From: an uncultured archaeon
GTDB lineage: Archaea; Asgardarchaeota; Jordiarchaeia; Jordiarchaeales; Jordiarchaeaceae
Length of the DNA stretch: 31,226 nt
Reading direction: 5' to 3'
Assembly: GCA_964510585.1 (NCBI GenBank)
Contig: CAZECW010000134.1
Location: 1-31,226, forward strand
The notes under the pieces were generated by a model that ran no database searches, was not told the origin of the DNA, and was given only the letters and a program-made list of their open reading frames with translations. Below, piece after piece: positions 131 through 25,136 of this stretch. Numbering within the stretch: position 1 is the stretch's first letter; each line of letters opens with the position of its first letter. A program made the position numbers and the translations under genes.

Positions 131-1543
131 ATAGTCCTGGAGAAGCATTACAGGGCTGGTGGTTATGCGGGCAGTTTTGTTCGTGGCAGATTTGAGTTTG
201 ACATCGCACTCCATCAAATCTCGGGTTTAGACCTGGTGGGTAAACGTGGTTTTCTTTATCGAAGCCTTGAAAGTTTAGGTGTGACAAAGAGGGTGGAATT
301 CATACGTCTTCCCAATGTTTACCGCTCCATCTTCCCAGATTTGGATATTACACTTCCTGCGGGGAGGGAGAACGCTGAGGGAGTTTTGTTGGATACTTTC
401 CCCAAAGAGTCGGAGGGGATAACCCGCTTCCTGGATAGGGTGGAGTCTACCAGTAGGGCTTTGGGTATGCTACAACGGGGGGCTGGCTCAGAGGAGGAAA
501 AAAGGTATGTTAAGGAGAACTTTTTCGCCTATAAGGATAAAACTTTGGCAGAGGTTCTAAATGGTGATGTTAGGGATCCCAGGGCCCGGGCGGTAATAGC
601 CCAAATTTTTGCTTATTTCGGCCTTCCTCCCTCAAGGGTTTCCTACCTCATATATGCTCTAGGTTGGGGTGACTATTTGCGTTATGGGGGAGCCCAAATT
701 AGGGGCACGTCTCAGATGCTTGCCAACGCCTTTGTGGATATTGTTCAGGAGATGGGTGGTGAGGTTCGATTCAACTGCGGAGTGAAAAAGATACTTACTG
801 AGGGGGGAAGAGTAACTGGTGTGTTAACCGAGAAGGGCGAAAAAATAGAAGCCCCCTATGTTATTTCAAATGTGAATCCCATAACCACCTGTGCCCAAAT
901 GATTGGAGTGGATAAATGTCCAAGCTCATTTTTCCAAGCCTTGCAGACCAAAGAAATTGCCATTGGTTCATGCTGCGTCTACATGGGTATAGATGTTCCT
1001 CATGAAGAGCTGGGTATAGATGATTTCGAAATATTCATAAACTCAAGTTGCGATTTTGAATCCTTCTGGGACAGGCTTAAGACCAGCATTGAACCCGCAG
1101 ATTTCGGATTAGCATGCTATAATGTAGCCTATCCAGACGCCTCACCACCGGGCACCTCAATTGTGGTACTTACAACCACAAGCTATGCTGAACCCTGGTA
1201 CAATGTTTCACCCGCAGAGTACGTGGAGACTAAAAATAGGGTTGCAGATACAATGTTGGAAAGAACAGAGAAGATCTTTCCGGGAATGAGGGAGCACATA
1301 GAGGTTATCGAAGTGTCAACCCCCCTAACCAATATGAGGTACACTGGTAATCCCGGTGGTTCCATCTATGGGTGGCCCTATTCTCCTAAAGAGAGCATAA
1401 TGTACCGTTTACCCCAAGAGGGGCCTCTCCGGGGACTCTTTTTTGCGGGAGCCTGGACCCAGATAGGGGGAGGATTCCAGCCCTGTATCATGTCAGGTAT
1501 TATGGCTGCACAGAGGGTAATATCTGAACTCACAAAAAAATGA
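131..1543 (+). pseudogene. Phytoene-desaturase-family FAD-dependent oxidoreductase, 5'-truncated
   Basis: The frame of ORF 236-1543 extends upstream as IVLEKHYRAGGYAGSFVRGRFEFDIALHQISG (family motif). It has an in-frame TAA at 80-82, no start codon and no GxGxxG dinucleotide-binding motif in any forward frame. The C-terminus carries STPLTNMRYTGNPGGSIYG and GLFFAGAW..GGG. Confidence 0.7.
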
Positions 1544-5763: not shown

Positions 5764-6534
5764 CTAGTTATCTTCTTCTTTGGGTTGAGAGCATAAGATT
5801 GGTGGTCGCTTTTCTTTTTGGGAAGTTCCTAAGCGGAGTTGGAGCATTTTCCATATTTCATCACAGACCTCTTTGTTTTCGCAGTTTGTGCAATCGTAGG
5901 AGGGAGTTGATTTCACTGGAGTTGCTATCCTCCAAGCTTCTTGGGTTATTGTTCCGAGTTCTTTTACATCCTCGGTGCTAGAGGTTACAAATATTACCTC
6001 TACAGCTTCTGCTCTTGGAAGATTTTCTTTGAGGCTTAACATTAGTGCTCTTCCCAGCGTTTCTAGTGTGAAACCCTTTTCTACGGCTTCCCTGCTCACC
6101 CTACTCCACACTCTTTGATGCTGGGGAACCGCCCTCAACATGTAGCCTTCCAAATTTAGATTGTATTGGTTTCGGCTGAGGAGCCGATAATTCTTAGGTT
6201 CCAAATCTCTAGTTTGGGCTATGATAATTTGGGCGAATGGCAAGTTGCCTTTTGCCTCAGGAATGTCGGGTCCCACAATTGTTACTTTTCCATCTCTGAC
6301 CAGTTCTGGATTCTCGGTCCATAGGACAAGAGCTGCTGAGGCGGTTTTGGGATTTCCCAGCTCGACAAAGGTGTCTTCTTTAAGAATTATTCCCGGCTGC
6401 TTGCTTATTGGAAGGCCTTTTTTCAAATTTTTAACACTAGTGGGGCACTGTTTTTCACACACTTTTTTCCCCTGTTTTTTCCAGTTTTCTACGCGTTGTC
6501 TTAGCTCCTCTATCATTATATCGAATATTTCCAA
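5764..6534 (-). CDS. Truncated acetyl-CoA synthase (AcsB/CdhC) middle-domain paralog with C-terminal CxxC-x5-C
   Basis: VELGNPKT, DGKVTIVGPDI, LPFAQI, EGYM..VWSRVSREAVEKGFTLETLGRAL and AVEVIFVT match the ACS middle domain. It ends at YDCTNCENKEVCDEI and lacks the rest of the A-cluster domain. RBS GGAGGT; 24 bp after the activator gene. Confidence 0.75.
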   Translation of the reverse strand: MEIFDIMIEELRQRVENWKKQGKKVCEKQCPTSVKNLKKGLPISKQPGIILKEDTFVELGNPKTASAALVLWTENPELVRDGKVTIVGPDIPEAKGNLPFAQIIIAQTRDLEPKNYRLLSRNQYNLNLEGYMLRAVPQHQRVWSRVSREAVEKGFTLETLGRALMLSLKENLPRAEAVEVIFVTSSTEDVKELGTITQEAWRIATPVKSTPSYDCTNCENKEVCDEIWKMLQLRLGTSQKEKRPPILCSQPKEEDN

Positions 6535-6558
6535 TAGTTTACCTCCGGTTGAGATGTT

Positions 6559-7335
6559 CTAACCTGCTTTTTGCTTGGCTATTAATGCTGCTCCCAATGC
6601 TTGCACTATTTGGGGATCAAATTTTACTTTTTTGATTTCTACGCCAATTTTTTCCTCCAGAATTTTCACCATTGCTTGGTTTTTCGCCACCCCTCCTATG
6701 ATTACTACGTCTTCTATAACTCCCAATCTTCCCACTAGGGTGGCTGTTCTGAGGGCTATGGAGTTGTTAATTCCGCTTACAATGTTTGCGATTTCCGATC
6801 CCTCATTGACATAGGTTATAACCTCGCTCTCGGCGAAAACACTACACTGGCTGGTTATGTTTACGGGATGTGACCCTTGGAGTGAAGGAGAATCGAAATC
6901 GTCTGGATTAATTTCTAGGGCTTCAGCCATTATCTCCAGAAATCTTCCAGTTCCACTAGCGCACTTATCATTCATTACGTAGTCAATCACTCTTCCCTCC
7001 TTGTCGATTTGCGCTACCCTTGTGAAGAGTCCCCCCACATCAATCACTGTTCTTGCAGTGGGCAGAAGCCACAGTACCCCTACAGCTCCGCAACGGATAT
7101 CGCTTTCGGTCGCGTTAGCGAAGGGAATTCTTGCCGCACCCCAACCGCAGCCCACACAGTACTTCACATTGTCAATGGTGATTCCCGCATTTGATAGTGC
7201 TTGGTTCATTGCGTTTCTTGCGGATTGCTCTGCTTTAGCCTCTGTGGTCACTATGCTGTAGGCTAAAATCTGATCATTTTTTAATAGTACCGCCTTTGTG
7301 GTCAATGTTCCAACGTCACAGCCAGCAAAAATCAT
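6559..7335 (-). CDS. ASKHA-fold [4Fe-4S] activator subunit, divergent (BcrD/BzdP-like)
   Basis: GCDVGT, NDKCASGTGRF and SQCSVF are retained, but GCGWGA replaces STGYGR and DVGGLFTR replaces DxGGQDxK. The likely start is ATG 7335 (GGAGG upstream), not 7458. Confidence 0.9.
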   Translation of the reverse strand: MIFAGCDVGTLTTKAVLLKNDQILAYSIVTTEAKAEQSARNAMNQALSNAGITIDNVKYCVGCGWGAARIPFANATESDIRCGAVGVLWLLPTARTVIDVGGLFTRVAQIDKEGRVIDYVMNDKCASGTGRFLEIMAEALEINPDDFDSPSLQGSHPVNITSQCSVFAESEVITYVNEGSEIANIVSGINNSIALRTATLVGRLGVIEDVVIIGGVAKNQAMVKILEEKIGVEIKKVKFDPQIVQALGAALIAKQKAG

Positions 7336-7339
7336 TATT

Positions 7340-8134
7340 TTACTTCCTCCTCTGCTGTTTAAGGTAATTCTCTTTGGCGAAAAGCGCGGCTCCCAGAGCT
7401 CCCATAATCTGAGGATCTTGGGGAAATTCCACGGCTTTGAATCCGATAAGTTCCTCAAGGTTTTTTACTACTGCCACGTTTTTTGCAACTCCCCCAGTTA
7501 TTCCCAGATCTTTTTTGATTTCTATTCGATTTATTAGAGCGTAGACCCTTCGAGCCATAGCTTGATTTATTCCCGCTGCGATGTCCTCAATCTTTTTACC
7601 CTCATTGATTAGAACCATGGTCTCAAACTCGGTGAATACGCTACACTGACTTGTGATACTCACTGGATTCTCTGACTTCAAGGAAACTGGTCCTAGTTCC
7701 TCAATTGTTAAGCCAAGTGTCTTAGCCATCATTTCCAGGAATCTCCCGGTTCCCGCCGCACACTTTTCATTCATAACAAAGTTTTTTACTCGTCCCTGAT
7801 CATCCAAACAAATCACCTTACAATCCTGTCCTCCAACGTCCACCACGGTTCTTATACTTGGTACCAGCCAATGTGCCCCCTTACCGTGACATGAAATTTC
7901 ACTAACATTTTTCTGGGCGAAAGGAATTCTACCCCGCCCATAGCCGGTACTAACACAATATTCTATATCATCTATTCTGAGACCGGCCTTCTCAAGTGTT
8001 TTGTTCATCACATCGCTGGCCGACTGCTCCGGCCGGGGGCGTACCCGAATAATTTCATAAGCCAATATTCTATTATCTTCCATGATTACTGCTTCTGCCG
8101 TAAGTGAGCCCACATCACAACCAGCCACAATCAA
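7340..8134 (-). CDS. ATP-dependent [4Fe-4S] activator subunit, canonical (HgdC/BzdQ-like)
   Basis: GCDVGS, STGYGR, EISCHGKG, DVGGQDCK, NEKCAAGTGRF, SQCSVF, TGGVAKN, GALGAAL. Confidence 0.95.
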   Translation of the reverse strand: MIVAGCDVGSLTAEAVIMEDNRILAYEIIRVRPRPEQSASDVMNKTLEKAGLRIDDIEYCVSTGYGRGRIPFAQKNVSEISCHGKGAHWLVPSIRTVVDVGGQDCKVICLDDQGRVKNFVMNEKCAAGTGRFLEMMAKTLGLTIEELGPVSLKSENPVSITSQCSVFTEFETMVLINEGKKIEDIAAGINQAMARRVYALINRIEIKKDLGITGGVAKNVAVVKNLEELIGFKAVEFPQDPQIMGALGAALFAKENYLKQQRRK

Positions 8135-9519
8135 CTGTGACTCCTCCTTTTAGATTCCCGGACGGTTTTTATAAACTCCGCCAACTTGGCCTTAATATCT
8201 GCTATAGAAGTAAACCTTTTATCTGCAATATCCATATCAAACCGGAGCGAAGGAATTCCAGCCTCCTTTTTTAGAGCGTCACTCAGAAGCTTGTTTAAAG
8301 CCCAACTGTGCTTACAAGCCATGTGTCCCCCAAATATGGCGCAGTCCGCCTTATACTCCTTTGCCAACCATACAAAGTCATCTATCCAAGTATCAGCATA
8401 ACCCAAACCCTGGCGGTGCATAGGCCAATTGAAGGACCTCTCAGCAAGCCCTCTTATTATGCTATCAGGGCTTGAAGTTTCAATAGGCTGGGTGAAGAAC
8501 CAGTCGAGCGCGTCGAAGAGGTGCACTGCCCCCAGCTCCTCTTCCAACCACCCATAGAAAGAGAAATCGAAGAGTACTGGCACATTAGTCCAGAGAGTCC
8601 TTATCTCCTCCATACCTTCGGGTATCACACCTACCCCATTATCCACGTTTCTTTTCGCAAGATCTCTACACACTTTAAAGAAGGATATGCCTTCAGGTTG
8701 TCCCATACCTATGAGCATTACTCCCGCCGCGGCAATGTGGCTAAAGCTTGGATCTGGGCAAGGAACAGCCTTCCTCAACTCCAGAACTTCAAGGAAGTAC
8801 TCGTAGGCCTGGTTTGAACACTCAACAACCTCTCTGAGCCTCTCTGGATCCAGCTTCTGTCCCGTTACTTCATCAAGCCTCTTAACCATCTTTTTAAACT
8901 CTTTAGCATAATACTCGAAGCTTCTAGAGTCCATAGAGTAGGGAACATCTATGGGAATGAATTTTGCATCAGTCCTCTCGGCTATCCACTGGTAGGCCAT
9001 ATTGCTTGCATCACATGCACCTACGGGTTTAACTATAATGTCAGGCTTGGGAACCTTGCCCAAAAGAAGATATCCCATGGTCGCTTTTTGGGTGGAGCAT
9101 AGATGGCTGGGGAAACCCTCTGCTTCAATCCTATCGATAGCTTGCTCGCCTCCGTTTATCCATGTTAAAGCAGCCGCCACTGACTGGTATTCTACACATA
9201 TGGGTATCAAGTCCATGGCGTAGTAAATTTCGGGTGAGTGTGTGAAGAAAAAGTAGACAACCTTTTTTCCTTCCTCTAATCCTTTAACAACAATATTATT
9301 CCAGTATTTGTAGTTGCATTTCACCCACTGCTTTGCAATTTCCCTATGTTTAGGTCTAGTAAAATTAGCGAGTCCAATTTGAAGCATTCTCAAAACACTC
9401 ATTTCCTCTTCCGAAAGGGAACCTAGTGTCCTCTCTAGGTTATTGCTCTCTAGGAATTTTTCTTGTATTTTATAAGCTAACGCCATATGCCTTGCAAATT
9501 CTGTGCCAGTCTCATCCAT
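8131..9519 (-). CDS. 2-hydroxyacyl-CoA dehydratase / aryl-CoA reductase alpha-type subunit (HgdA/BcrB/BzdO-like), paralog 2
   Basis: Three cluster Cys (HLCSTQK, GACD, ACKH), IDVPY, LDPERLREVVE.SN, and C-terminal GIPSLRFDMDIAD. Confidence 0.9.
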   Translation of the reverse strand: MDETGTEFARHMALAYKIQEKFLESNNLERTLGSLSEEEMSVLRMLQIGLANFTRPKHREIAKQWVKCNYKYWNNIVVKGLEEGKKVVYFFFTHSPEIYYAMDLIPICVEYQSVAAALTWINGGEQAIDRIEAEGFPSHLCSTQKATMGYLLLGKVPKPDIIVKPVGACDASNMAYQWIAERTDAKFIPIDVPYSMDSRSFEYYAKEFKKMVKRLDEVTGQKLDPERLREVVECSNQAYEYFLEVLELRKAVPCPDPSFSHIAAAGVMLIGMGQPEGISFFKVCRDLAKRNVDNGVGVIPEGMEEIRTLWTNVPVLFDFSFYGWLEEELGAVHLFDALDWFFTQPIETSSPDSIIRGLAERSFNWPMHRQGLGYADTWIDDFVWLAKEYKADCAIFGGHMACKHSWALNKLLSDALKKEAGIPSLRFDMDIADKRFTSIADIKAKLAEFIKTVRESKRRSHS

Positions 9520-9577
9520 TTTTACAAACCTCCGATCCCCTCAAGAAAAGATTAAATCTCTCATTTACCTTAGAGTA

Positions 9578-10960
9578 TTAATGCCTTTTTCTTTCCCGAA
9601 CATTTTTTATGAACTCTGCAAATTTAGCCTTTATGTCCACTATGGATGTTACTCTTTTATCAGCTAAATCCATTTCAAAGCGTAGTGAGGGAATTCCTAC
9701 CTCTTTTTTAAGAGCGTCGCTTAGAAGTTTATTTATCCCCCAGCTGTGTTTACAAGCTGCATGTCCGGCGAATATAGCGCAGTCCGCCCTGTACTCTTTC
9801 GCAAGCCATACGAAATCGCTTATCCAGTCATCGGCAAATCCCATGGACTGGCGATGCATGGGCCAGTTGAAGGACCTCTCAGCGAGCCCTCTTATTATGC
9901 TATCAGTGGATGAAGTATCTATTGGTTGAGTGAAAAACCAATCCAGACAGTCAAATAGGTGTATTGCCCCCAGTTCCTCCTCAATCCAGTCAAAGAAGGG
10001 GAAGTCAAAGAGTATAGGTACATATATCCAGAGTGTCCTTATCTCCTCCATACCTTCGGGTATAACTCCCACCCCCTTCTCCACGTTTTTCTTCGCAGTG
10101 TCCCTACACGCCTTAAAGTAATCTATGGCTTCGGGACGCCCCAAGCTAGTCAGCATCGTTCCCGCTGATAGTAAATGACTGAGGCTGGGATCCGGGCAAG
10201 GAACCGCTTTTCTTAATTCCATATTTTCAAGGAAGTACTCGTAGGCCTGGTTTGAACACTCAACAACCTCTCTGAGCCTCTCTGGATCCAGCTTCTGTCC
10301 CGTTACCTCTTCAAGCCTGGCAATCATCTTCTTATATTCGTTTAGATAGTACTCAAAGGCATGGGAGTCTAAGGAGTAGGGTGTGTCCATAACGATGAAC
10401 TCCGCACCAGTTTTTTCCGCCATCCACTGGTAGGCCATGTTACTGGGGTCACATACTCCTACGGGTTTAACTATAATGTCTGGTTTTGGAACCTTATTCA
10501 TGAGTAGCCAGCCCATCGTTCCTTTCTGTGCCGAACAGAGGTGGCTTGGTAATCCCTCAGCTTCGATCCTGTCAATTCCATCTTCAGCTCCGTTAGTCCA
10601 CACCGCTGAGGCTAAAGCAGGCTGGTATTCTGCACATATGGGTATCAAGTCCATGGCGTAGTAAATTTCGGGTGAGTGAGTGAAATAGAAGTAGACAACC
10701 TTCTTTCCCTCCTCTAATCCTTTGAGAACAACATTATGCCAGTATTCATAGTTACATTTTATCCACTCCCTTACTATATCTTTAAGCTTGGGCTTAGGTA
10801 TCACCTCTGCCAAAGCTATCTGAAGTATTCCTAACAAACTTTGCTCTTCTGGTGTTAAGGTGGCTAGAGCCTGCGTTAAATCCTTAGCATCTATAAATTT
10901 GTTTGCTATACTGAAAGTTAGGGACATTAGCCTTGCATGTTCTTTTCCATTATTCCTCAT
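9578..10960 (-). CDS. 2-hydroxyacyl-CoA dehydratase / aryl-CoA reductase alpha-type subunit, paralog 1
   Basis: HLCSAQK, GVCD and ACKH; collinear and highly similar to 8131-9519 over its full length. Confidence 0.9.
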   Translation of the reverse strand: MRNNGKEHARLMSLTFSIANKFIDAKDLTQALATLTPEEQSLLGILQIALAEVIPKPKLKDIVREWIKCNYEYWHNVVLKGLEEGKKVVYFYFTHSPEIYYAMDLIPICAEYQPALASAVWTNGAEDGIDRIEAEGLPSHLCSAQKGTMGWLLMNKVPKPDIIVKPVGVCDPSNMAYQWMAEKTGAEFIVMDTPYSLDSHAFEYYLNEYKKMIARLEEVTGQKLDPERLREVVECSNQAYEYFLENMELRKAVPCPDPSLSHLLSAGTMLTSLGRPEAIDYFKACRDTAKKNVEKGVGVIPEGMEEIRTLWIYVPILFDFPFFDWIEEELGAIHLFDCLDWFFTQPIDTSSTDSIIRGLAERSFNWPMHRQSMGFADDWISDFVWLAKEYRADCAIFAGHAACKHSWGINKLLSDALKKEVGIPSLRFEMDLADKRVTSIVDIKAKFAEFIKNVRERKRH

Positions 10961-10963
10961 TTT

Positions 10964-12094
10964 TCACCCTCCTATTCTCTCCAGAAATGCTTGCACTCTG
11001 GTTCGGAACCTTCCAACATCGCTTATTAGATAGTCCCTCTCTAGTATCAATGTGGGAATGTTTTCCTCCTCCAATTCCTTGCTTATCATAACGTTGTCGA
11101 CACCATGTGGATCGCAGAAGGCAATCTTCTCAAATATTACCCCATCTACTCGGGCTTTTTCAGCCAATTCCCTCACAAAGCCCAATTTCTTGGGATACTC
11201 CCTCAACATACGTGGACAAGGATTATGATAATAGTAGCGCTTAGCTACAGCTTCCAAAGGGTCTCCCTCACCACTAACCAACCCCTTAAATTGCCTTGTT
11301 CCAAAACAGAGGGAATCGGTGACCACAAGTCCTCCCAAGTCCTCAATAATCTCAATTAAACTTGGTTGGTCAAGTTCGCTCCCTACAATCATTAGTCTCG
11401 CATCATAGTCTCTTATACCCCCTGAATTCTCTAGCTCTTTTAATAAACTAGCAAGCATAATGTTGAAATCTTCCCTCGGCATCGCTGAGGCAGCTGCAAC
11501 TATGCTGAGGCTCTGAGCTCCATTAATCGGTGGATTCTCCTTGGCTCTAAGGTTGTAAAGTTTTTCCAGGAGCTCACGGCTCTCGTTGTAAACATTTATT
11601 GATTCTCTGAGCTTCTCATCTGTTATCTTCACACCAAAGTGTTGCTCAATGTGCTCCTTAAATCTTTCAACTTCCTCCATATAAAATTTAAATCCATCTT
11701 CGGTGAGTACGTGCGGTACAGGCAAGAAGTGGTGGAACGGGATTTTAACTATCCTAACCCAGTTATCGTAAACCCTCCGTATGTGGTCACATCCGTTAAG
11801 GTAGCAGAATCCATCCAGAAAATCGTAGGCTCCCGTGATACCTAGTTCAAGGACAGCCCGGCAGAAGCTACAGTTAAACCTGCCCATATAAATGTCCGCA
11901 TTTGAGGTGCCAGTACAGGTTACTCCCCTTATTCTATAGGGCAATATGCCTGCAGCGTGGATTATTTCCTCTGGAGCATAAGTGCAAGTGTACCCAATAA
12001 TTTTCTTTCCCTGCTTCTTCCATTCATCAATGTAAGAGTTACGCAGAGTTGATGAAACCTCAACTAACTTATCTAAAATCTCCAAAAATCTCAC
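10964..12094 (-). CDS. 2-hydroxyacyl-CoA dehydratase / aryl-CoA reductase beta-type subunit (HgdB/BcrC/BzdN-like)
   Basis: KIIGYTCTYAPEEIIHAAGILP, NCSFC, NGCDHIRR, RLMIVGS, AFCDPH, GRFRTRVQAFLE. Confidence 0.92.
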   Translation of the reverse strand: MRFLEILDKLVEVSSTLRNSYIDEWKKQGKKIIGYTCTYAPEEIIHAAGILPYRIRGVTCTGTSNADIYMGRFNCSFCRAVLELGITGAYDFLDGFCYLNGCDHIRRVYDNWVRIVKIPFHHFLPVPHVLTEDGFKFYMEEVERFKEHIEQHFGVKITDEKLRESINVYNESRELLEKLYNLRAKENPPINGAQSLSIVAAASAMPREDFNIMLASLLKELENSGGIRDYDARLMIVGSELDQPSLIEIIEDLGGLVVTDSLCFGTRQFKGLVSGEGDPLEAVAKRYYYHNPCPRMLREYPKKLGFVRELAEKARVDGVIFEKIAFCDPHGVDNVMISKELEEENIPTLILERDYLISDVGRFRTRVQAFLERIGG

Positions 12095-12320: not shown

Positions 12321-13361
12321 ATGGATCGCTTGGAGAATGTTTTGCGGGCTATTGAATTTCTCTCCCCTGAATGTGTGCCTGTTTATCGCTTATCACTGAA
12401 TCCTGAGAATCCTTGGATTGAGAGTGATTTTATCGAGGTGCTCTATACTCACCCGAAAGGCTGGAAGCCGAGTCGGAAGGGAGAGGATGAATGGGGATGT
12501 GTCTGGGATAATCTTGGAGGCAAAACAATGGGAAACGTTGTTACCCCACCTATTACTTCTTGGGAGAAGTTGGAGGATTATGAGTTTCCCGATCCCTACT
12601 TGGAGGATAGGTTTACGGATCCTATTCCCTACAAGGTAGGAGATTTTTCATTTGAGATTCCAAGTGCTGAGCAACAAATTTCCACTTGGGCAGGGGATAG
12701 ATATGTCCTTGGCAGCTTGGAGATTACTCTATTTCAGCGTCTCCAGTTTCTTAGAGGAGCAGACACAATTCTTAAGGACATTTACTTGGAGAGGGAGATG
12801 GTGGAGGAGCTGGCGGATAGAGTAACAGATTTTTACTTGGGACTGATTGAAATGTGGAGTTCTCGTGGGGCCCACGGGGTAATTGCTTATGATGATTTTG
12901 GAACGCAGCAGGGATTATGGATGCGACCCCAGATTTGGAGGGAAATCTTCAAGCCCCGCTACTGGAAGATGGTTAAAGCCGCCCATAATAGGGGAATGCA
13001 TTTCTTCCTCCACAGCTGCGGATACATCTATGATATAATAGGTGATCTTGTTGAAATTGGGCTGGACGTCTTACAATTGGATCAGCCTGAACTTCTGGGC
13101 GTTGACCGGCTGGGAAGAGATTTTGGTGGTAAGATTTGCTTCTTCTGTGTGGTAGATATTCAAAAAACTCTCCAAACTGGAACTAGAGAACAGATAGAGG
13201 AAGCCGCAAAGCATATGATTAAGGTTCTGGGAAGCTTTGATGGAGGCTTTATGGGAAGAGCTTACCCGCAGCCAGAGGCAATAGATCTTAAACCTGAAAA
13301 CGTGGACACCATGATCAGAGCTTTTAGAAGGTATGGGAAATATCCGAGGAGAACTGTCTAA
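12321..13361 (+). CDS. Uroporphyrinogen-decarboxylase-fold protein (MtaA/CmuA MT2-type corrinoid methyltransferase-like)
   Basis: DEWGCVW, YDDFGTQQGLWMRPQIWREIFKP, Zn-type LHSCG, LVEIGLDVL, and G.FM..YP at the C-terminus. Confidence 0.85.
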   Translation: MDRLENVLRAIEFLSPECVPVYRLSLNPENPWIESDFIEVLYTHPKGWKPSRKGEDEWGCVWDNLGGKTMGNVVTPPITSWEKLEDYEFPDPYLEDRFTDPIPYKVGDFSFEIPSAEQQISTWAGDRYVLGSLEITLFQRLQFLRGADTILKDIYLEREMVEELADRVTDFYLGLIEMWSSRGAHGVIAYDDFGTQQGLWMRPQIWREIFKPRYWKMVKAAHNRGMHFFLHSCGYIYDIIGDLVEIGLDVLQLDQPELLGVDRLGRDFGGKICFFCVVDIQKTLQTGTREQIEEAAKHMIKVLGSFDGGFMGRAYPQPEAIDLKPENVDTMIRAFRRYGKYPRRTV

Positions 13362-14128
13362 ACTTTAAGTTTTTCAAATATTTTCTTTACAGCTTTTAGG
13401 CTTGGTGCACTACTTGGAATTTCAGTTATGGGCTTCCCAAGTGTGTCTAGTTTTGTGATGTTTTCGTCTTCTGGCACGGTGCCGAGTACCTTCAGCTGGA
13501 GTTCCTCCGCCCGCCTTTTTATTTCCACTATTTCATCTGGGCTTCTTACCCTATTGATTATGAGCCCTGTTTCCCTGTGATGTGTGTATTTGGCGGCCGT
13601 TTCCCTAATTGCGTTTGCGGTTTGGAGGCCCCTTAGTGTAGGGTCGGTTACAATTAGTAGTGTTTTCACGGATCTAACCACTTTTCTGTTTATTTGTTCA
13701 AGTCCCGCCTCACAGTCAACGAGAGTTACATCAAAGTTTTTTGATAGGGTTTCAATTGCGTCTCTAAGTAGGGTGTTTGCTGGGCAGAAGCAGCCAGGGC
13801 TGTCTGGAGTGCCCATAGCTAGGAGATTAAACCCTTTATCCTCAACCAGAGCCTCAAGAAGGTAGTAATCAAGTGAATCCACTATCTCCCCCTTTTCATC
13901 CTCGTCTCCCTCACTTGCAACTTTTATAACGTTTTTCCTAAGGTCTTCTAGTGTCCGCTCTACTCTGAGTCCAAGTATTCGCGCAAGATGAGATGTTGAG
14001 GGATCTCCATCGATAAGGAGCAGACGAAGTCTGGGAACATTTTTGAGGACAATCGCCATGAGGGCTGTGATAACAGTTTTGCCTGCTCCTCCCTTACCAG
14101 CCACAGCAATTATAGAAGAATCGGTCAA
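13358..14128 (-). CDS. cooC: CooC/AcsF-type nickel-insertion ATPase (MinD/SIMIBI family)
   Basis: Deviant Walker A GKGGAGKT, IDGDP, Ni-binding GCFCP (CxC), VDCEAGLEQ. TTG start with GGAGG. Its stop overlaps the convergent gene's stop (13358-13361). Confidence 0.88.
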   Translation of the reverse strand: MTDSSIIAVAGKGGAGKTVITALMAIVLKNVPRLRLLLIDGDPSTSHLARILGLRVERTLEDLRKNVIKVASEGDEDEKGEIVDSLDYYLLEALVEDKGFNLLAMGTPDSPGCFCPANTLLRDAIETLSKNFDVTLVDCEAGLEQINRKVVRSVKTLLIVTDPTLRGLQTANAIRETAAKYTHHRETGLIINRVRSPDEIVEIKRRAEELQLKVLGTVPEDENITKLDTLGKPITEIPSSAPSLKAVKKIFEKLKV

Positions 14129-14278: not shown

Positions 14279-15991
14279 TTGAGTGGAGAGAAGGAGCCGC
14301 TATTTGAAGTTGTATTCGATTTTGAGAATCCCAGTCCTTGGGTTCGCCCAAATCGCCCCTGGGAGAAATGGTACCGAGAAGCTACCTATGAGGGAAGAAA
14401 GATAAACATTCCTCGAACCATTAAGTATCCTGAAATACCTATACATTATTTTGGAAGGGACGCTGCGGAGAATTATCCCAACAATGTGGCCGTCTACTAT
14501 ACTCCTCAGGAAAAGAAGTACACTTACCGTGAACTAATGTACTACAGTGACAAAATCTCTGCGGCGCTGGCAGACCTTGGAGTGGAGAAGAACTCTTCTG
14601 TTGCAGTATTTATGGCAAACACTCCCGAATTCGTATTCTCCCTTTATGGAATCACTCAGACAGGGGGAGCAGTGACACCCATAAACCCCCTACTTAAGGC
14701 CCCAGACATAGCCCACATTGTAAGAGACAGTGGAATAATAGATACACTCATCTGTACCTCTAACCTCTACCCAGTGGTTGAGAAAACACGGGAGGAGGTG
14801 GAACTGGAAAACGTAATAGTGGTGGGCGACAAGATACCAGGAACCATAAACTTTGCAGAGATGATTGAGAAGTATCCCCCCAAACCCCCAGACGTCACAA
14901 TAAACCCAAAGGAGGATGTTTGCGCACTAATGTACAGTGGAGGAACCACGGGACTACCAAAGGGAGTGATGCTCACCCACTATAACATAGTGGCAGACGT
15001 AATAGCTAGTGCCCATACACAGTGGGGAGATGACAGATCCGGAGCTGGTAAAGGAACAGTTATTGCCGTTCTGCCAATGTGCCACGTCTTCGGATTTACT
15101 ATGGTTCAGAGCTATGTGTATGCAAAATCCATGATGATAATGTATGCGGGATTCGACCCCGAAGTGGTAATGAGGGATATTGAAAAGTATAAAAGTGAGG
15201 CGTTTCTGGGAATTCCACTCATGTATTTTGTTTTGGTAAACCATCCAAGCTTTGGAAAGTACGATCTCTCCTCATTAAAGCTAGCAATATCCGGCGCAGA
15301 TACTCTGCAGACTGTGATTTCAGAAAAGTGGAAAAAGGTCACAAACGTCGATGTAGGTCAGGGGTATGGTCTCTCCGAGGCAAGCCCAGTGACCCACAGC
15401 CAACCTCCATGGCTGCCAAAAATAGGAAACAGCATAGGGATACCAATAATAGATACCGACGCAAAAATTGTGGATCTTGAAACTGGAACACAGGAACTAC
15501 CGCCGGGAGAGATAGGTGAACTTATGGTCAGAGGACCACAGGTGATGAAGGGCTACTGGAAGCAGCCCGAAAAGACAAAGGAAACAGTAACTGAGGATGG
15601 ATGGCTTCACACTGGAGACCTGGCCCGAATGGATGAGAATGGCTACTTCTACATAATGGGGCGATTCAAAGACATAATCAAGTATAAGGGTTACAAGGTT
15701 ATGCCCGACGATGTAGAAAACGAATTGTTAAAACATCCCGCAATACTGCAATGTGTGGTAATCGGTGTTCCAGACCCAAAAATTGGAGAAAACATTAAGG
15801 CCTTTGTGGTGCTTAAAGATGAGTACAAGGGAAAAATTAGTGAACAGGAGATCATTGATTGGGCGAAGGAAAACATGGCAGGGTACAAGTGGCCCAGAAA
15901 AGTAGAGTTCATTGATGCAATTCCCAGAACCGCGGTGGGAAAGGTGTTCAGAAGAAAACTGAGGGAAATGGAGCTTGCGAAAAAGGCCTAA
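14279..15991 (+). CDS. Acyl/aryl-CoA ligase (AMP-forming, long-chain-fatty-acid--CoA ligase family)
   Basis: YSGGTTGLPKG, GQGYGLSE, GWLHTGD, GRFKDIIK, PRTAVGK. Confidence 0.95.
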   Translation: MSGEKEPLFEVVFDFENPSPWVRPNRPWEKWYREATYEGRKINIPRTIKYPEIPIHYFGRDAAENYPNNVAVYYTPQEKKYTYRELMYYSDKISAALADLGVEKNSSVAVFMANTPEFVFSLYGITQTGGAVTPINPLLKAPDIAHIVRDSGIIDTLICTSNLYPVVEKTREEVELENVIVVGDKIPGTINFAEMIEKYPPKPPDVTINPKEDVCALMYSGGTTGLPKGVMLTHYNIVADVIASAHTQWGDDRSGAGKGTVIAVLPMCHVFGFTMVQSYVYAKSMMIMYAGFDPEVVMRDIEKYKSEAFLGIPLMYFVLVNHPSFGKYDLSSLKLAISGADTLQTVISEKWKKVTNVDVGQGYGLSEASPVTHSQPPWLPKIGNSIGIPIIDTDAKIVDLETGTQELPPGEIGELMVRGPQVMKGYWKQPEKTKETVTEDGWLHTGDLARMDENGYFYIMGRFKDIIKYKGYKVMPDDVENELLKHPAILQCVVIGVPDPKIGENIKAFVVLKDEYKGKISEQEIIDWAKENMAGYKWPRKVEFIDAIPRTAVGKVFRRKLREMELAKKA

Positions 15992-16303: not shown

Positions 16304-17098
16304 ATGAATTATGAGTGTTTAATTCTTGAGAAAAACGAAGAAAAAGGAATAGCGAAAATAACTCTAAATCGACCGGAAGCTATGAATAGCTGGAATTACC
16401 AGCTGGCAAAGGAATTCTTGGAAGCTGTGAGGAGCCTAGAAGATAACCGCAAGATTAGGGTTCTGATTATTACTGGTTCTGGTGGAACATTCTCCACTGG
16501 TGCAGACCTAAAATTTGTGAGGTCTCTACTTGATGAGGGCTTAGAGAAGGGATGGGAAATGATTACCACCCTAAATGAAGCCTTCAGCAACTGTGAAAAA
16601 ACCAGATTGCCCGTAATTGCCGCGGTAAACGGTTTCGCCCTAGCCGGAGGCTTGGAACTCATTCTCTGCTGCGACATAGTGTTAATGGCGGACAACGCCA
16701 GAATAGGAGACTACCACTCCAACTTCGGCCTAATACCGGGCGGAGGAGGCTCTCAACGTTTGCCCAGAAAAATAGGAGACCAAAACGCAAAATATCTACT
16801 ATTTACTGGAAGATGGGTTTCAGCCGAAGAAGCCAAAGCCATGGGCCTAGTCCACCAAGTAGTGCCAGCCGACAAACTCATGGAAGAAGCCGAGAAACTA
16901 GCCATGAGAATCGCGGAAAAAAATCCCGGCGGCATAAAATACATGAAGTACCTGGCAAACAAAAGCAGAGACCTACCACTAGAAGAAGGCTTAAAACTGG
17001 AACAAGAAATCTTCATGAAATTTGCAGTGGAAGAGAGAGAAAACCTCATTGAGGGGTTAACCGCCTTCATGGAAAAGAGGAAACCAGTTTTCAAATAA
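16304..17098 (+). CDS. Enoyl-CoA hydratase/isomerase (crotonase) family protein
   Basis: LNRPEAMNS, FSTGADL, AAVNGFALAGGLEL, FGLIPGGGGSQRL, AFMEKRKPVF; GGAGG RBS. Confidence 0.95.
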   Translation: MNYECLILEKNEEKGIAKITLNRPEAMNSWNYQLAKEFLEAVRSLEDNRKIRVLIITGSGGTFSTGADLKFVRSLLDEGLEKGWEMITTLNEAFSNCEKTRLPVIAAVNGFALAGGLELILCCDIVLMADNARIGDYHSNFGLIPGGGGSQRLPRKIGDQNAKYLLFTGRWVSAEEAKAMGLVHQVVPADKLMEEAEKLAMRIAEKNPGGIKYMKYLANKSRDLPLEEGLKLEQEIFMKFAVEERENLIEGLTAFMEKRKPVFK

Positions 17099-23571: not shown

Positions 23572-24771
23572 GTGAGAGGTGAGTTCTTGAGCGCATTCAT
23601 TATTGGAGTTGGATTAACTCAGATTAAATCGCACTGGGATGCGGATTCAGCCACACTGGCGCACAAAGCTATAATGGAAGCTCTCAGAGATGCTAACCTT
23701 GAACCAAGAGACATAGAAGGAATTATAACCACGCCTCAAGGATACTTTACCGACGCTAAAGATATTGATCGGTTTGCCCCCCAGAGGATGGGGGAGTACC
23801 TAAACATAGATGCTAGGGTGCAGGTCGCGGTTGACATTGGTGGGATGAGCAGCCTAGCCGCAGTAAAGTATGGGGTCTACGAAGTATTACTGGAGAAATG
23901 TAGAACTCTTTTAATTTATGCATCGGAAAAACTTGTGGCTCGTGAAGATTTTAATATTTCACGCCACATGTACCTCACATACCTCGTTAATGGACTCTTT
24001 GGACCCTATGATAGCAGGTATGGGGTAACTAGAGCCGTTCCCTACTATGCTATGGCTACCCAGAGGTACATGTATGAATATAATGTTAATAAGGAAGATA
24101 TAGCCCACTTACCGGTTGTCTTGAGGGAAAACGCTTCCTTAAACCCTAGGGCGCAGTTCCGGGAACCAATAACAGTTGAAGATGTGCTCAACTCTAAACC
24201 CGTGTGTCCCCCACTAAACCTTCTTGAGTGTTGCCCAGTTTCTGAAGGAGGAGCAGCAATTATCATTTCAGACCAGAGTACAGCTAGAGATTTGGGAAGG
24301 GATGATTGTTACATTGCGGGGATAGGGGAGGCACATGATCCCACGAGTTTTTTCCCAGTTTACCAATCGGTCACCGAAATTCCTTCTCTGAGGAGAGCCA
24401 CACAAGAAGCTTTGAGACAAGCCCAAGTGGATTTAAAGGACGTAGATGTTGCAGAAGTTTATGGTCCATTTAGCGGTACAGAACTAATGGTTTATGAAGA
24501 ACTGGGTTTTTATGAGAGAGGAAAGGCGGCGGAAGCGGTGGTTGAGGGACGCACAAGAATAGGCGGAGACACTCCCATAAATCCTTCGGGGGGAAGACTC
24601 TCCTTGGGTCACCCGCCCTACGTAACTCCCCTTGCTGAAATATATGAAATAGTGACCCAGCTGAGAGGAGAGGCAGGAAGGAGACAAGTTCAAGATGCAG
24701 AAATTGGACTGGTACACGCTGAACATGGGATGATGAATGGAAATATGGTGGCAGTAATAAAGAGGAGGTAG
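23572..24771 (+). CDS. Thiolase-fold protein lacking the catalytic Cys (SCP-x/Ltp2-like)
   Basis: NPRAQF, PLNLLECCPVSEGGAAII, DVAEVYGPF, PINPSGGRLSLGHP. The position of xACASG reads DIGGMSS. Confidence 0.85.
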   Translation: MRGEFLSAFIIGVGLTQIKSHWDADSATLAHKAIMEALRDANLEPRDIEGIITTPQGYFTDAKDIDRFAPQRMGEYLNIDARVQVAVDIGGMSSLAAVKYGVYEVLLEKCRTLLIYASEKLVAREDFNISRHMYLTYLVNGLFGPYDSRYGVTRAVPYYAMATQRYMYEYNVNKEDIAHLPVVLRENASLNPRAQFREPITVEDVLNSKPVCPPLNLLECCPVSEGGAAIIISDQSTARDLGRDDCYIAGIGEAHDPTSFFPVYQSVTEIPSLRRATQEALRQAQVDLKDVDVAEVYGPFSGTELMVYEELGFYERGKAAEAVVEGRTRIGGDTPINPSGGRLSLGHPPYVTPLAEIYEIVTQLRGEAGRRQVQDAEIGLVHAEHGMMNGNMVAVIKRR

Positions 24772-24776
24772 AAGGA

Positions 24777-25136
24777 GTGGAGAGATTCTTCCAAGAACTG
24801 CAAAACAGGAAATTTAAAGTTCCAAAATGTAAAAACTGTGAAAGACACATATATCCGCCAAGAGATTTTTGTCCCTTCTGCAGCTCCAAAAACCTGGAAT
24901 GGGTTGAAATAAGTGGGGAAGGAACACTATACGCCTACACAATAAATGCGGGAGGAATACAATTTCGCAACGAAACCATAGGAATAGTGGAATTAAAAGA
25001 AGGATTCAAAATCCTAACATACATAGGAAAACCAATCCAAGAACTAAAAATCGGACAACCAGTAAAACTTGAATACACAGAAATAGAAACCCAAGAGGGA
25101 AAATTAACACTCCACAAATTTACACCACAAAACTAA
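24777..25136 (+). CDS. DUF35-family Zn-ribbon/OB-fold protein
   Basis: KCKNC..IYPPRDFCPFC, EWVEISGEGTLYAYT, GIVELKEG, LKIGQPV; 5 bp after the thiolase-fold gene. Confidence 0.92.
   Translation: MERFFQELQNRKFKVPKCKNCERHIYPPRDFCPFCSSKNLEWVEISGEGTLYAYTINAGGIQFRNETIGIVELKEGFKILTYIGKPIQELKIGQPVKLEYTEIETQEGKLTLHKFTPQN

Follow-up and report, generated by a model that had tools for sequence, protein, structure and literature searches.

A stand-alone derivative of acetyl-CoA synthase in a benzoyl-CoA reductase-like operon of an Asgard archaeon

Overview of the locus

The window (the whole stretch of DNA analysed, 31,226 nucleotides, contig CAZECW010000134.1) belongs to an uncultured hot-spring Asgard archaeon, represented by a metagenome-assembled genome (MAG) that is 96% complete and whose nearest named relatives are Candidatus Jordarchaeum/Jordarchaeia (80–82% identity). 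A six-gene operon on its minus strand ends in a gene for a small protein related to acetyl-CoA synthase (ACS), here termed mini-ACS, which a preliminary description of this DNA correctly placed as the last gene of its operon; the other five are three HGD-D and two BcrAD genes (Table 1). Upstream, and transcribed divergently, lie genes for a URO-D/MtaA-like protein and a CooC-type ATPase. At least six studies have hot-spring metagenome runs with near-identical DNA covering 5764–12094; the listed runs with near-identical operon DNA are hot-spring DNA runs only, none being an RNA run.

Table 1 Features of the window, with coordinates and the evidence for each assignment
Feature	Position	Strand	Basis
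Mini-ACS gene	5764..6534	minus	256-residue open reading frame, TTG start; last gene of the operon
ACS A2 (middle, CoA-binding) domain, residues 34–209	5908..6435	minus	VIA-align and Foldseek
W143 codon, equivalent of CoA-adenine-stacking Trp405 (C. autoethanogenum ACS)	6106..6108	minus	Profile alignment, residue spacing, 9g7i range
C215-x2-C218-x5-C224, putative metal-binding motif	5863..5892	minus	Invariant in relatives; C215/C218 align with ACS C506/C509
C248 codon, fourth Cys in 'RPPILC' tail, clade-specific	5791..5793	minus	Conserved in tail-Cys subfamily members
BcrAD/BzdQ-type ATPase subunit 2	6559..7458	minus	Pfam BcrAD_BadFG, E 3e-48; TIGR00241, 216 bits
BcrAD/BzdQ-type ATPase subunit 1	7340..8134	minus	Pfam BcrAD_BadFG, E 7.9e-61
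HGD-D large (α, catalytic-type) subunit, paralogue 2	8131..9519	minus	Pfam HGD-D, E 1.8e-58
HGD-D large (α-type) subunit, paralogue 1	9578..10960	minus	Pfam HGD-D, E 1e-60
HGD-D small (β) subunit, BzdN-like	10964..12094	minus	Best PDB match BzdN 8s02_B, E 6.6e-61
URO-D/MtaA-like protein	12321..13361	plus	Pfam URO-D, E 3e-13; MtaA/CmuA subfamily, E 1.4e-12
CooC-type P-loop ATPase	13358..14128	divergent from operon	Best PDB match CooC1 3kje
Acyl-CoA ligase	14279..15991	plus	NCBIfam match; CoA-ester pathway context; divergent from operon
Crotonase	16304..17098	plus	NCBIfam match; CoA-ester pathway context; divergent from operon

Fold and domain composition of mini-ACS

Judged by its sequence and predicted fold, mini-ACS is a stand-alone ACS derivative, comprising the A2 domain and a remodelled remnant of the loop that carries the A-cluster cubane. 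A GGAGGT located 8 nt 5' of the TTG precedes the frame, and the three Jordarchaeia orthologues share both the TTG start and the LEIFD N terminus. Residues 50–186 match the Pfam CdhC family (PF03598; E 8.4e-19, 68.4 bits, gathering threshold 24), yet the score against the TIGR00316 cdhC equivalog (70.7 bits) falls far under the 355.95 cut-off. NCBIfam holds no model dedicated to mini-ACS: the cdhC/AcsB models alone match, all far below their cut-offs.

The AlphaFold2 model, for which 28 relatives were used, reaches a mean pLDDT (predicted local distance difference test) of 87, dropping below 50 at 209–213 and in the tail (246–256). Superimposing with VIA-align places residues 34–207 on 316–491 of Moorella ACS (3git/1oao), with a Z score of 20.7 and a root mean square deviation (RMSD) of 1.9 Å over 169 residues, against Z 3.6 for the best unrelated fold; Foldseek returns ACS chains as the only significant matches (E 1.8e-13). 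The alignment to AcsB that had been proposed therefore bears out the ACS middle domain, as does the PF03598 match. Residues 1–33 add an N-terminal helix and strand. Contrary to the earlier statement that the protein ends at its cysteine motif, 32 residues continue past it, with a predicted helix at 221–235 and a further cysteine, C248.

The same genome encodes a complete CdhC on another contig (C58), with the full set of ligands: C194, C197, C206 and C216 (C-x2-C-x8-C-x9-C) and C283-G-C285. Mini-ACS shares 26% identity with it over 141 residues.

The cysteine site

The motif YDCTNCENKEVC is confirmed, with C215 lying 72 residues downstream of W143 in VWSRVS (previously put at about 70). The family profile pairs Y-D-C-x-x-C-E with Y-S-C-x-L-C-Q-S of solved ACS chains, so that C215 and C218 equate to Moorella C506 and C509, both by profile alignment and by position in the 3git/1oao chain, in agreement with the earlier identification of the first A-cluster cysteines. 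C224, within 'V-C', plausibly corresponds to C518 of 'H-V-C' after a three-residue deletion. CxxCx5C is invariant in all 121 close relatives (aligned sequences consisting of the window protein and the 120 closest among the relatives listed) and in all 135 distant full-length relatives. The ancestry of the site suggests that it may hold a [4Fe–4S] cluster, although a single metal ion would fit the sequence too.

A fourth cysteine is present in nearly every close relative, at one of two positions. In 103/121 it stands upstream, five residues before C215, with none after C224; a further 15, the window protein included, have a tail cysteine and lack the upstream one, placed +23/24 after C224 in an 'ILC' motif in 14 of these and at +18 in the other (P0052). 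Two sequences have both and one has neither, leaving 118 with exactly one. Such an either/or pattern implies that a fourth thiolate is required in the subfamily, from one position or the other. The tail-Cys state amounts to 1–2 changes on a tree of the 121, rooted on the genome's own CdhC through an outgroup branch (3.8) that is too long to place the root. The earlier view that three Fe–S ligands are kept and the fourth lost thus fails for this protein, where C248, strictly conserved in its clade, is present, and holds for a part of the wider family discussed below.

Loss of the Ni site was rightly noted in the preliminary description: the mini-ACS sequence contains no Cys-Gly-Cys. Nor does the family share a fifth conserved residue that could serve as a Ni ligand; the N-terminal C30 is Cys in 101/121. 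Comparing C30 with CooC adjacency gave no association (24 with C30, 19 without), a result that we do not use as the column mapping is unreliable.

The putative CoA-binding surface

Acetyl-CoA bound to C. autoethanogenum ACS lies mostly on A2: its adenine is stacked against Trp405, its diphosphate faces a Lys/Arg patch, and Arg383 and His386 are located close to the A-cluster (bioRxiv 10.1101/2024.08.05.606187). Offsets of Arg383, His386 and Gly399 from Trp405 (−22/−19/−6) fit an R/H/G set in Moorella ACS, counted from the Trp of NWLRVS. Because the offsets fit exactly and the range aligned to 9g7i agrees, Trp405 equates to W143 of mini-ACS. W143 and R145 are invariant in 121/121 relatives, and basic residues close by (R134, R141 and K/R148) are well conserved.

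Conservation and gene neighbourhood

A word-indexed search found 178 mini-ACS relatives of 237–297 residues, and an exhaustive profile search 216 clusters (50% identity, E ≤ 1e-30), nearly all of 230–290 residues; the ESM Atlas adds 41 clusters with at least 50 members and the same single-domain make-up, commonest in Bacillota. AlphaFold DB clusters contain other mini forms and full-length ACS, with no HGD-D or CooC fusion among them. The window protein has the length, the CxxCx5C motif and the W143/R145 pair that mark the family. Between Jordarchaeia orthologues the ratio of non-synonymous to synonymous substitution (dN/dS) is 0.08–0.15, at dS 0.6–1.5.

These data bear on the possibility that the gene is a decayed cdhC fragment, or a mis-called open reading frame without function. 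Mini-ACS does span under half of CdhC and scores 70.7 against 356 bits, but its length and motif are kept in hundreds of clusters from archaea and at least six bacterial phyla, the dN/dS is low, the operon position is conserved, and identity to the intact CdhC of the same genome is just 26%. We therefore regard decay, which the preliminary description had named as the alternative to its own proposal, as refuted by the conservation data, with hardly any residual probability.

Annotating 59 loci from species-representative genomes of at least seven phyla, with the window proteins as queries, reveals a recurrent arrangement in Jordarchaeia, Dehalococcoidia and other Chloroflexota, Thermodesulfobacteriota/Syntrophales, Myxococcales, Binatia, Actinomycetes and one Bacteroidales MAG. 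Within 6 kb of mini-ACS, HGD-D genes are found at 53/59 loci, BcrAD at 50/59 and CooC-like genes at 46/59. The gene immediately 5' encodes an HGD-D or BcrAD protein at 48 of the 50 loci with room for one; the gene immediately 3' is CooC-like at 43/53 and URO-D-like at 3/53. The partner ATPases have G-C-[YF]-C in 44 of 45 cases. Eight further metagenome contexts, found by protein, have the same arrangement, two of them from a distant branch of 239–247-residue proteins, and a ninth contig ends just 5' of the mini-ACS gene. A neighbourhood survey had been suggested for co-occurrence with HgdABC/Bcr genes and CooC, and the counts of 48/50 and 43/53 establish mini-ACS as a conserved partner of both.

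In the source genome there are five HGD-D loci, of which the window locus alone has a mini-ACS, and five CooC-type paralogues with 30–34% mutual identity (contigs C58, C187, C40 and C209 are listed); of these, one on C58 lies 6 kb from the complete cdhC. The mini-ACS/CooC pair is therefore tied to one enzyme and provides no general service.

Two side observations concern the make-up of such modules. On the distant 239–247-residue branch, a 488–499-residue protein without a Pfam hit precedes the HGD-D genes (L072:2373-3839 and L073:2314-3813), and may be a further conserved component. One Thermodesulfobacteriota genome (GCA_964479535.1) has at least two complete mini-ACS/BCR-like modules (BCR, benzoyl-CoA reductase) of different subfamilies, at loci L001 and L073; the latter has its own CooC-like gene, and a URO-D-like gene replaces it in the former.

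The partner enzyme and its ATPases

The β subunit retains six Cys that are conserved in 47 homologues. BzdN holds its [8Fe–9S] cluster through six Cys (PMC11971306), and by comparison with it the window β subunit probably carries a double-cubane cluster. The α subunits are more remote: paralogue 1 finds weak matches in the PDB to HadB (E 5e-9) and BzdO (E 2e-7), and three Cys are conserved across 54 α homologues, as in BzdO and HadB. The tandem 460-residue α paralogues share the one BzdN-like β, a three-HGD-D layout that recurs in Dehalococcoidia (L010, L021 and L030). As listed, the frame of ATPase subunit 2 has 299 residues from a TTG and overlaps that of subunit 1 by 119 nt; translation probably begins at the ATG at 7335, from where MIFAGCDVG parallels LIVAGCDVG of subunit 1.

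The CooC-type ATPase aligns with CooC1 over its full length (3kje; E 2.8e-17, residues 7–255), with a deviant Walker A motif (GKGGAGKT) and a CFC aligned with the metal-binding CYC of CooC1.

Ferredoxin fusions and a predicted complex

Natural fusions of mini-ACS to a C-terminal 2x[4Fe–4S] ferredoxin domain have arisen twice independently, in different subfamilies. One (P0175) is of the three-Cys type and is present on two contigs (L074:235-1161 and L075:216-1142), with a CooC-like gene directly 3'; the other (L048:5502-6563), from a Dehalococcoidia MAG, is of the four-Cys type. The fusions therefore argue that the mini-ACS cysteine site belongs in an electron-transfer chain. A classical ferredoxin motif (CxxCxxCxxxCP) is absent from the mini-ACS protein and from the whole window. 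Reading frames with a ferredoxin motif occur within 7 kb at 7 of the 59 loci, none of them being an operon gene for a small, separate ferredoxin. In Thauera and Azoarcus BCR operons a ferredoxin gene (fdx/bzdM) follows the ATPase genes, the position that mini-ACS holds here. Given the fusions, mini-ACS may work like the BCR-associated ferredoxin, yet it is no member of that family.

Modelling of a complex with the five upstream subunits had been proposed; we predicted it for mini-ACS (1–249) with β (16–376) and α paralogue 2 (74–462), using trimmed chains folded without alignments. The docking score is 0.53, against 0.01 for the best control and 0.00 when the α subunit is replaced; at least 64% of contacts are common to the runs, and the partner pLDDT is at least 74. 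In calibration the pass mark was reached by 51/78 solved complexes and 2/108 mismatched pairs, and a pass at or below 0.60 proves wrong in most cases, except where the pairing was already probable. With synteny taken into account, the prediction modestly raises the odds that mini-ACS docks on the catalytic α subunit.

Comparison with known systems

Mini-ACS resembles ACS (AcsB/CdhC, EC 2.3.1.169) in its A2 fold, in W-x-R-V-S with the adenine Trp, and in a CxxC homologous to C506/C509. It differs in lacking the A3 domain and the Cys-Gly-Cys of the Ni,Ni site, in its Cys spacing (x2/x5 rather than x2/x8/x9, with C248 24 residues on), and in its setting among BCR-like genes, where ACS stands among genes for carbon monoxide dehydrogenase (CODH) and corrinoid proteins. 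As the A3 domain, Cys-Gly-Cys, equivalog score and CODH/corrinoid context all fail, mini-ACS is not an acetyl-CoA synthase. Nor, on the reading proposed below, does it play a part in CO fixation, as the preliminary description had also held. A Pfam scan of the 20 largest reading frames of the window found no gene for CODH or a corrinoid protein.

The genomic pairing of an ACS-derived protein with a CooC-family ATPase bearing a P loop and a CxC motif recalls ACS/CODH and CooC/AcsF. Here, however, the client is without the known Ni ligands, and the two genes lie 7 kb apart in the window, whereas they adjoin in most bacterial mini-ACS loci. Bzd-type class I BCR (BzdNOPQ with BzdM; 8s02) provides the closest parallel to the operon, sharing a BzdN-like six-Cys β, a three-Cys α, two ATPase subunits and a gene for a small putative redox protein after the ATPase genes. 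Unlike that system, the window has duplicated α subunits that are remote from BzdO and HadB (E 1e-7 to 1e-9), its small protein is an ACS derivative instead of a 2x[4Fe–4S] ferredoxin, and a CooC-type ATPase forms part of the module.

Proposed role and alternatives

We propose, giving the idea about an even chance, that a Bzd-type BCR-like reductase has mini-ACS as a metallo-subunit, which is redox-active, binds the nucleotide of CoA and has its metal site loaded by the CooC-type ATPase. It would be a dedicated metallo-subunit, or a tight partner, of one class-I-BCR-like enzyme made up of a BzdN-like double-cubane β, a divergent three-Cys α and a two-subunit ATPase. C215, C218, C224 and C248 would hold a redox-active centre, most likely [4Fe–4S] and possibly with Ni, that is loaded by the CooC-type ATPase of the locus and relays electrons between ferredoxin and the enzyme. 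Near W143/R145, the A2 surface would hold the acyl-CoA substrate by its nucleotide end at the α subunit. Fold, motif homology, conservation, synteny and fusions are observed, and from them the metal identity, CoA binding, physical association and direction of electron flow are predicted.

Besides this predictive character, several points weigh against the proposal. The equivalent of the catalytic His386 of ACS is Tyr or Phe in 102/121 relatives (Tyr in the window protein), and that of Arg383 is Arg in just 70/121. With His386 lost and Arg383 variable, the A2 surface is ACS-like in part: of the CoA site, the portion that binds the nucleotide seems to have been kept, but not the portion for acetyl transfer. 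Conservation of W143 and R145 could itself reflect the fold alone. At the cysteine site, 41 of the 135 distant members have three Cys only, without another conserved Cys or His, so that not every member can have a Cys4 cubane; with three or four Cys, the motif could instead bind a single Zn or Ni ion and no cluster. The docking score, from trimmed, alignment-free chains, supports contact with α weakly. Finally, BzdNO produced in E. coli has its clusters and binds benzoyl-CoA without any mini-ACS-like subunit (PMC11971306), so the need for an extra CoA-binding module is not obvious.

An unlikely but substantial alternative is that mini-ACS and the CooC-type ATPase form a maturation module, assembling or repairing a metal cluster of the HGD-D enzyme with mini-ACS as a transient scaffold or adaptor. 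The tight, often overlapping junction of mini-ACS and CooC genes (43/53 loci) fits this, as do the P loop and CxC metal motif retained by the CooC partners, and a short contig (L015) on which mini-ACS lies beside CooC and URO-D genes with no HGD-D gene. To our knowledge, all characterised CooC/AcsF proteins are metal insertases. Yet in the window mini-ACS shares an operon with the enzyme genes, with CooC 7 kb off beside divergent genes, and an invariant CoA-adenine Trp and ferredoxin fusions have no obvious purpose in a scaffold; BzdNO, moreover, gains [8Fe–9S] and [4Fe–4S] clusters in E. coli without such factors (PMC11971306). Slightly less likely still is a soluble, dedicated electron carrier that replaces the BCR ferredoxin and shuttles to the ATPase module with no handling of substrate. 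Ferredoxin-domain fusions, operons without a small ferredoxin gene and a position like that of fdx/bzdM in characterised BCR clusters would all suit a carrier; an A2 domain of 200 residues that includes an invariant W-x-R motif for nucleotide binding goes far beyond what one needs, and we know of no ferredoxin with a private CooC-type maturase. The predicted complex also places mini-ACS on α and not on the ATPase, a weakly supporting result from a job that comprised α, β and mini-ACS.

More radically, mini-ACS might be a pared-down A-cluster, in which Ni inserted by CooC is bridged by C218 to a three- or four-Cys cubane for organometallic thioester chemistry. C218 corresponds by homology to C509, which bridges Ni in ACS; the CoA-adenine Trp is kept, the dedicated CooC-type ATPase retains the Ni-binding CxC motif, and about a third of the wider family is three-Cys, leaving an open site. 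We nevertheless consider it improbable in view of the missing Cys-Gly-Cys that holds both Ni ions (C283-G-C285 in the genome's own CdhC), the loss of the His386 equivalent and the lack of a family-wide fifth residue as Ni ligand (C30 being Cys in 101/121). There is a comparably slim prospect that such a centre, beside a retained CoA-binding surface, would act on intermediates of the BCR-like module, the candidate reactions being acyl-CoA cleavage or formation, thiolysis and a carbonylation or decarbonylation step. If true, Ni–Fe–S thioester chemistry of this kind would mean that ACS-type chemistry has a second use in biology, outside the Wood–Ljungdahl pathway.

Relation to the literature and significance

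ACS is regarded as an ancient, single-purpose enzyme of CO2 fixation. At this locus selection has preserved part of that enzyme, the CoA-binding domain and the first cluster ligands, for a different purpose. Mini-ACS and its private CooC-type ATPase form a standard add-on to a distinct, widespread clade of ATP-driven radical enzymes of BCR/dehydratase type, ranging over Asgard archaea, Chloroflexota, Thermodesulfobacteriota, Myxococcota, Binatota, Actinomycetota and Bacillota. We know of no published BCR or 2-hydroxyacyl-CoA dehydratase (HGD) with mini-ACS- or CooC-type subunits, and of no known substrate for the enzymes of this clade. The role of the pair would reveal how low-potential enzymes get electrons or handle CoA esters, and would show whether CooC-type chaperones have clients beyond CODH and ACS. 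As the proteins of the family are small, soluble and easy to produce, the question lends itself to direct testing.

Searching full-text literature in CdhC/ACS-like, BCR, HGD, CooC and Asgard contexts, we found no paper that describes the mini-ACS family. The one 'CdhC-like' match is a full-length ACS without the prismane domain, and proteomics of acetone and ketone degradation in sulfate reducers reports induced BCR/HGD-like subunits and mentions no ACS-like or CooC protein. The ACS-derived domain and the BCR-like enzyme are of known kinds; the two accessory proteins of the enzyme are described in no publication found. The present analysis contributes the shifted position of the fourth Cys, a subgroup with three Cys, the fusions to ferredoxin, the assignment of the CoA-adenine Trp, the specificity for one locus of the genome and a controlled, weak docking prediction.

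Neighbouring genes

The matches of the URO-D/MtaA-like protein lie below the curated cut-offs of the specific families. It contains H-S-C (231–233) and C-F-F-C (273–276), motifs that look like the Zn-thiolate site of MtaA-type methyl-corrinoid:thiol methyltransferases and unlike uroporphyrinogen decarboxylase. URO-D-like homologues lie directly 3' of mini-ACS at L001, L052, L066 and L068, and between the CooC-like gene and mini-ACS in L015.

Further along the window, at 23572–25136 (+), a thiolase-like gene (Thiolase_C_1) is followed by one for a DUF35/ChsH2-type protein with a Zn ribbon and OB fold, a pair typical of anaerobic CoA-ester degradation pathways. Flavoproteins resembling amine oxidases and phytoene desaturases recur near mini-ACS (window 236–1543 (+), L001:18310-20792 and L008:6773-8293), as do GMC oxidoreductases (L001, L003, L072 and L073); their recurrence hints at the substrate class.

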